Shown: positions 56,934 through 56,972 of the stretch, in pieces
How the letters are laid out: every line of letters begins with the position of its first letter
How positions within the stretch are numbered: position 1 is the stretch's first letter
Translations under genes and position numbers: made by a program
Notes under the pieces: generated by a model
Told to the model about the DNA's origin: nothing
The model's database searches: none
The model's input: only the letters and a program-made list of their open reading frames with translations
DNA from: Escherichia coli
Lineage (GTDB): Bacteria; Pseudomonadota; Gammaproteobacteria; Enterobacterales; Enterobacteriaceae
Reading direction: 5' to 3' (one strand)
Length of the DNA stretch: 64,000 bases
Assembly: GCF_044324785.1 (NCBI RefSeq)
Contig: NZ_CP172127.1

Positions 56934-56972
56934 AGTGCACTGGTAGCTGTTAAGCCAGGGGCGGTAGCATTC
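56934..56972 (+). promoter_or_regulatory. JUMPStart element with ops-like site upstream of the O-antigen cluster
   Basis: CAGTGCACTGGTAGCTGTTAAGCCAGGGGCGGTAGCATT, nearly identical to the wza JUMPStart; ops core GGCGGTAG is followed by CATT instead of CGTG. Confidence 0.6.

Follow-up and report, generated by a model that had tools for sequence, protein, structure and literature searches.

What does an ops element lose when its last bases depart from the consensus? The 64,000-nt window analysed here, from Escherichia coli contig NZ_CP172127.1, raises this question because the ops in front of its O-antigen genes reads GGCGGTAGCATT and not the canonical GGCGGTAGCGTG. A sequence-only reading of the window had noticed these departures, which direct reading places at ops positions 10 and 12, and had proposed that they might modulate RfaH-dependent antitermination. 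We therefore asked whether the element is a genuine JUMPStart with a working ops, and how the two variant bases are best explained.

The Rfam model RF01707 (JUMPstart) matched the plus strand at 56933-56971 over its whole length (model positions 1-38 of 38), with a score of 57.6 bits, above the gathering score of 35, and an E value of 1.3e-10 for the whole 64-kb window. The matched 39 nt, CAGTGCACTGGTAGCTGTTAAGCCAGGGGCGGTAGCATT, fit the Rfam consensus at 37 of 39 bases, indicating that the O-antigen JUMPStart had been recognised correctly, although it had been placed one base too far to the right (56934-56972). According to the structure line of the Rfam alignment, its stem-loop covers 56940-56958 (+), with CTGGT (56940-56944) pairing with GCCAG (56954-56958) around a 9-nt loop; the conserved 5-bp stem upstream of ops (CUGGU/GCCAG) is thus present in O22. 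The same helix appeared in the minimum-free-energy fold of the O22 leader, but this fold was no more stable than those of shuffled sequences (z = -0.02), so that folding adds no independent support for it.

The ops occupies 56960-56971 (+). Its core octamer GGCGGTAG, with the C3:G8 stem and the G5-T6 loop bases, lies at 56960-56967 and is followed by C9 at 56968 and T11 at 56970; bases 1-9 and T11 are canonical, the variant bases being A10 (56969) and T12 (56971). The T at 56971 replaces G12, the second base of the TG pause dinucleotide, and this G is the only one of the ops membership features tested by sequence that the O22 element lacks. However, G12 is typical of ops rather than strictly defining, as the RfaH-bound ops of kpsM and c1882 also lack it. 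The O22 ops is intergenic and lies on the plus strand upstream of plus-strand genes, that is, on the non-template strand of an untranslated leader. JUMPStart elements are found in the sense-strand 5' leader of polysaccharide clusters, and here galF, on one side, and the O22 glycosyltransferase gene, on the other, are on the same strand.

Sequence comparisons identify the window as the region of cps, galF and O-antigen genes of an E. coli of serogroup O22. Over the 2.3 kb that begin at the end of galF, identity was 98.5-99.6% to nine complete genomes, including 'O22:H8 RM10809-3' and NCTC9022, and in the latter the collinear genes are annotated as 'O22 family' wzy and wzx. In the window, these correspond to ORFs for the O-antigen polymerase (411 aa; 59735-60970, +; 'O22 family O-antigen polymerase' in NCTC9022) and the O-antigen flippase (405 aa; 62666-63883, +; 'O22 family O-antigen flippase'). 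From the ORF list and the annotation of homologous loci, galF, which forms the conserved left border of the O-antigen locus, extends over 55782-56675 (+). It is followed by the intergenic leader or promoter region that precedes the JUMPStart (56676-56932, +), as defined by alignment with CFT073. The transcription start of CFT073 wzx, 67 nt upstream of ops, corresponds to about position 56893 by this alignment and the published distance. As a scan of the plus strand of the spacer found no consensus sigma-70 promoter, the promoter of the O22 leader is a presumed one. The approximately 60 nt immediately upstream of the JUMPStart (56873-56932) are unlike the spacer of most E. coli serogroups, including that of CFT073, and the stretch further upstream (56676-56872) is nearly identical to the common E. 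coli spacer; the O22-type spacer occurs, at about 95% identity, in a few other genomes, such as NCTC9087.

Downstream of ops, a spacer of only 21 nt (56972-56992, +), with nothing more than a weak GGAA Shine-Dalgarno-like motif, leads to the ATG of the first O22 gene at 56993, and the distance from the start of ops to this ATG is 33 nt, as compared with 40 nt for CFT073 kpsM. Based on the ORF list and the annotation of NCTC9022, in which the product has 363 aa, this gene (56993-58083, +) encodes a family-4 glycosyltransferase. In the window, however, it is frameshifted, because one G, present in all nine complete O22 genomes (181-nt versus 182-nt comparison; alignment), is lost between 57526 and 57527, before a run of seven A, leaving two overlapping ORFs (56993-57634 and 57571-58083). 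Either the frameshift genuinely inactivates the gene, in which case the strain may be rough or have an altered O-antigen, or it is a sequencing error beside the homopolymer. The GC content drops from 0.43-0.54 to about 0.30 directly 3' of the JUMPStart.

The window contains a second JUMPStart upstream of the colanic acid gene wza, at exactly the coordinates given before (31635-31673, +; RF01707, 57.3 bits), whose ops 12-mer (31662-31673) is the canonical one. Having called the two elements almost identical was generous, since they share 32 of 39 bases; the seven differences are located in the hairpin loop (three), in the 5' part (two) and in the ops tail (two). Three more GGCGGTAG octamers occur in the window out of any JUMPStart context, two of them on the plus strand (31075-31086, 44336-44347), reading GGCGGTAGTTTT and GGCGGTAGGCGG, and the third on the minus strand (19809-19816). 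They are probably chance occurrences, or ops-like sites within genes, a kind that RfaH leaves unbound in CFT073. Among other structured RNAs, the Rfam search detected an algC RNA motif located in the colanic acid region (RF02929, 74.2 bits; 46060-46109, +) and three tandem copies of SIB RNA (RF00113, 138-150 bits; 14627-14769, 14955-15097 and 15284-15432, minus strand), the antitoxin RNA of ibs/sib type I toxin-antitoxin loci.

We examined the distribution of the variant tail with a search for a 30-mer ending in GGCGGTAGCATT, in which every seed word was forced to include ops position 10. The search matched 256 genomes, nine of them over the full 30 bases and 247 over 29 bases. The nine were precisely the complete O22 genomes (9/9), which fall into two sublineages and originate from cattle, goat, humans, wastewater and food. 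The type strain NCTC9022 has two base differences in the 5' part of the JUMPStart and the same ops tail. In the 247 partial matches, ...GCAT precedes a base that is not T; the one that we inspected lies in the leader of CFT073 kpsM, where ops reads GGCGGTAGCATA. The presence of the same tail in nine out of nine O22 genomes indicates a fixed allele and no error, and A10 and T12 are best read as an allele that travels with the O22 cluster.

Tail frequencies were counted in 5,426 complete E. coli genomes using the 28-mer TAGCTGT[T/A]AAGCCAGG + ops, so that only elements with this context could seed a match. GCGTG was present in 2,898 genomes (747 + 2,151), GCGTT in 83 (49 + 34) and GCATT in nine. 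Hence, the variant is not the norm among O-antigen JUMPStarts, since 2,898 genomes have GCGTG within this 28-mer context and 92 have T12. The comparison with other serogroups nonetheless showed that T12 recurs: of the 83 GCGTT loci, the nine inspected included the O-antigen clusters of O21, O38, O93 and O130, a wecB-first cluster unnamed by PGAP and a group-1 capsule locus, with the element upstream of wzi. The idea that the O22 variant is unique in kind could therefore be discarded, both by T12 in 83 further E. coli genomes and by the combination of A10 with a base other than G12 in kpsM.

A wider sample confirmed that the ops tail is naturally variable. The scan of metagenomes for the JUMPStart core recovered 120 loci, with tails GCGTG (68 loci), GCGTC (31, all of one family, upstream of wzi-type capsule genes), GCATA (seven), GCGTT (five), GCGTA (four), GCATG (two) and, once each, GCTTC, GCTTG and GCATT, the last in locus L222. 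The scan of a genome collection with a 15-mer also gave 120 matches, of which only 24 were true JUMPStarts, most being chance matches in high-GC organisms. Among 143 JUMPStarts pooled from these two unbiased scans, position 9 was always C (100%) and position 11 was T in 99%; position 10 was G in 89% and A in 10%, and position 12 was G in 62%, C in 23%, A in 9% and T in 6%, so that about 38% of the sampled JUMPStarts lack G12. The O22 tail is rare, yet both of its changes fall at the two most variable positions of ops.

The GCGTC loci constitute a wzi-wza-wzb-wzc capsule JUMPStart family (31/120, including L124, L129 and L134; and L246), whose ops, GGCGGTAGCGTC, precedes a leader with the conserved sequence GCTGAAGCCGCTTGCTGC... 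To judge from L246, which has the gene order of a K-locus, this family probably consists mostly of Klebsiella K-loci, and C12 appears to be fixed across a whole class of capsule loci. At the site homologous to the ops of this family, the E. coli group-1 capsule strain CFS3273 contains GCGTT. We also observed a weak base preference 3' of ops, with C at position 14 in about 50% of cases, T at position 15 in about 71-76% and A-rich positions 17-18 (nCTGAA); this preference at positions 13-18 comes partly from over-represented families.

In an alignment of the elements from O22, O21, O38 and O130 with nine metagenomic loci of the E. coli type, the sequence was invariant from CTGGTAGCTGT through GGCGGTAGC, position 10 was variable, T11 was invariant, position 12 was variable again and everything 3' was unrelated. 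Likewise, the blast homology of other serogroups to the window ended at 56968-56974. The JUMPStart is thus conserved between two divergent flanks, and serogroup-specific DNA begins directly after its last base.

The published functions of the ops bases allow the two changes to be evaluated. RfaH recruitment requires bases 3-8, and in the hairpin formed by ops T6 is flipped out (Zuber et al. 2018, PMC5995543). The authors stress that the validated targets of E. coli K-12 have TG at positions 11-12 in common; nevertheless, with G12C the U11 pause is lost in vitro and RfaH is still recruited, and RfaH can load on complexes halted at C9, G10 or U11 (PMC5995543). According to the source data of their lux assays, the wild type ops gave 35.9-fold RfaH activation, as compared with 18.6-fold for G10C and 20.0-fold for G12C, and with 4.7-fold for G5A, 4.9-fold for G8C and 4.8-fold for T11G (PMC5995543). 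In the structure of the ops-paused complex from 2024, G10 and T11 stack on W183 of the beta subunit, and G12 is located in the core-recognition-element pocket (PMC11001881).

Natural variants of the tail are bound by RfaH in vivo. Of the eight RfaH-bound leader ops found by ChIP-seq in CFT073, five have GCGTG (wzx, wza, tssH, rfaQ and c4518) and the other three GCATG (hlyC), GCGTA (c1882) and GCATA (kpsM) (PMC9765446, Data set S2). Fold enrichment was highest for kps (70.9), as compared with 30.6 at the O6 wzx operon and 19.0 at rfaQ (PMC9765446); our own reading of the kpsM ops agrees with the published site. An ops with A10 and without G12 thus demonstrably works in vivo. Only leader ops sites were bound in CFT073; its GCGTT 12-mers are all intragenic and gave no RfaH signal, the same as every other intragenic site of whatever sequence (PMC9765446). 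Our literature searches found no published experiment on the O22 ops or on any T12 ops and, among papers on RfaH evolution, no survey of natural ops tails; a full-text search for the core octamer returned unrelated primer lists only.

From these data, we consider it likely that the O22 JUMPStart/ops is a tolerated natural allele that retains its function. As ops bases 1-9 and T11 are intact, including the hairpin contacted by RfaH, the sequence argues that the O22 element is most likely a working ops. Four lines of evidence weaken the proposed modulation of antitermination: A10 and T12 are outside the bases needed for recruitment; single substitutions G10C and G12C keep about 19- to 20-fold activation against the 36-fold of the wild type; the strongest RfaH ChIP-seq peak in CFT073 belongs to the kpsM ops, with A10 and a base other than G12; and T12 recurred in all further O-antigen clusters inspected from the GCGTT matches. 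Any tuning effect of A10 and T12 would probably be modest. On the other side, the O22 ops has neither of the Y-G pause dinucleotides, C9G10 and T11G12. In addition, the mutants published for these two positions carry C in place of G, and in the natural site known to bind RfaH position 12 is A.

A tolerated allele would operate as follows. Transcription would start in the spacer between galF and the JUMPStart and, when polymerase reaches ops, the non-template G2-C9 hairpin, with its C3:G8 stem and G5-T6 loop, would be recognised by autoinhibited RfaH. RfaH would bind through G5 and T6, load on the polymerase and exclude NusG and Rho. Judging from the CFT073 data (PMC9765446) and from the drop in GC content, the RfaH-modified polymerase would then resist termination promoted by Rho, NusG and H-NS across the O22 operon, of about 30% GC, whose genes are probably bound by H-NS. 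RfaH may also aid the loading of ribosomes on the first gene, with its ATG only 21 nt past ops. In this process, A10 and T12 would, at most, make pausing at the T11/G12 and C9/G10 dinucleotides weaker, and recruitment would persist, as suggested by the kpsM precedent and by the twofold effects of single substitutions.

The alternative that survives best, although we judge it rather unlikely, is that the variant is a tuning allele: by removing both Y-G steps, A10 and T12 would shorten the pause and reduce RfaH loading, making O22 expression lower or more dependent on the level of RfaH. This would agree with the loss of the U11 pause in G12C, with the approximate halving of lux activation by either G10C or G12C (PMC5995543) and with the position of G12 in the core-recognition-element pocket (PMC11001881). 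Moreover, G is preferred at position 12 (62-68%) even though the downstream DNA is AT-rich, indicating some selection for G, and the allele is kept in all O22 genomes. However, conservation within O22 is equally expected from linkage with the cluster, and the absence of G12 from about 38% of the sampled JUMPStarts requires no special regulation. The kpsM ops combines the same A10 with the lack of G12 and has the strongest ChIP signal (PMC9765446), and RfaH recruitment is possible with the polymerase halted at C9, G10 or U11 (PMC5995543). In a broader and still more doubtful version of this idea, positions 10 and 12 would be a natural expression dial, with the lost Y-G steps shortening the pause and lowering or conditioning RfaH loading in O22 and, likewise, with the GCGTT alleles of O21, O38, O93 and O130. 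If this were true, the output of O-antigen would differ between serogroups through the leader, beyond the biosynthetic genes alone.

We find it highly improbable that the ops has decayed, which would leave an RfaH-independent O22 cluster and a JUMPStart that is a relic recombination anchor. The two departures from the 12-mer consensus, the first gene very near ops (21 nt) and its frameshift in this strain could be taken as signs of decay. Against this, the JUMPStart agrees with the Rfam consensus at 37 of its 39 positions and retains every base that RfaH contacts; its conservation between divergent flanks speaks for selection on the element as such; the operon, of about 30% GC, is long and without any other ops; and similar variants bind RfaH in vivo (PMC9765446). 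Finally, a sequencing error or a mutation private to one strain, for which nothing but the rarity of the allele speaks, is ruled out by the identical 30-mer in nine independent O22 genomes, including NCTC9022, and is further contradicted by the same tail in the unrelated locus L222, so that we assign it a negligible probability.

The O22 element has close counterparts among known systems. The 39-bp JUMPStart was reportedly described by Hobbs and Reeves in 1994. With the rfb, waaQ and wza leaders of E. coli (GGCGGTAGCGTG; RF01707), the O22 leader shares the 39-nt element, its stem-loop and ops bases 1-9 and 11, and it occupies the place of the canonical O-antigen JUMPStart, on the coding strand after galF and ahead of the first O-antigen gene; it differs in having A10 and T12 instead of G and G, and only 21 nt from ops to ATG. 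The kpsM ops of CFT073 (group 2 capsule, region 3) has the same core GGTAGCTGTTAAGCCAGG, A10, a base other than G at position 12 and a short distance to the ATG, and its binding by RfaH in vivo is documented by ChIP-seq; it differs in that it contains A12 instead of T12 and belongs to a capsule export locus beside gsp genes with another downstream operon. The JUMPStarts of O21, O38, O93 and O130 (GGCGGTAGCGTT) are in the same locus as that of O22, have the same T12 and are directly followed by serogroup-specific DNA; unlike O22, they keep G10, in a tail found in 83 of the 5,426 genomes versus nine for that of O22. Metagenomic locus L222 has an identical ops 12-mer followed by CTTAT, in an O-antigen-like cluster downstream of a galF-like gene (gene order: galF-like, JUMPStart, family-2 glycosyltransferase, Wzx-like gene). 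L222, however, belongs to another enterobacterial lineage (galF of about 80% nucleotide identity); its JUMPStart has a different 5' part, CAGCGCGCTGG, and the genes downstream are unrelated.

Together, these comparisons place a known element in a known, already sequenced cluster, and the allele is a minor polymorphism. Its significance is small: the O22 O-antigen operon carries a standard RfaH-loading signal. The T12 leaders are natural variants of it. As a by-product, positions 10 and 12 vary naturally and positions 9 and 11 do not, which qualifies the common view that ops is an invariable 12-mer with TG at its end, and conservation between O-antigen serogroups ends exactly at T11.
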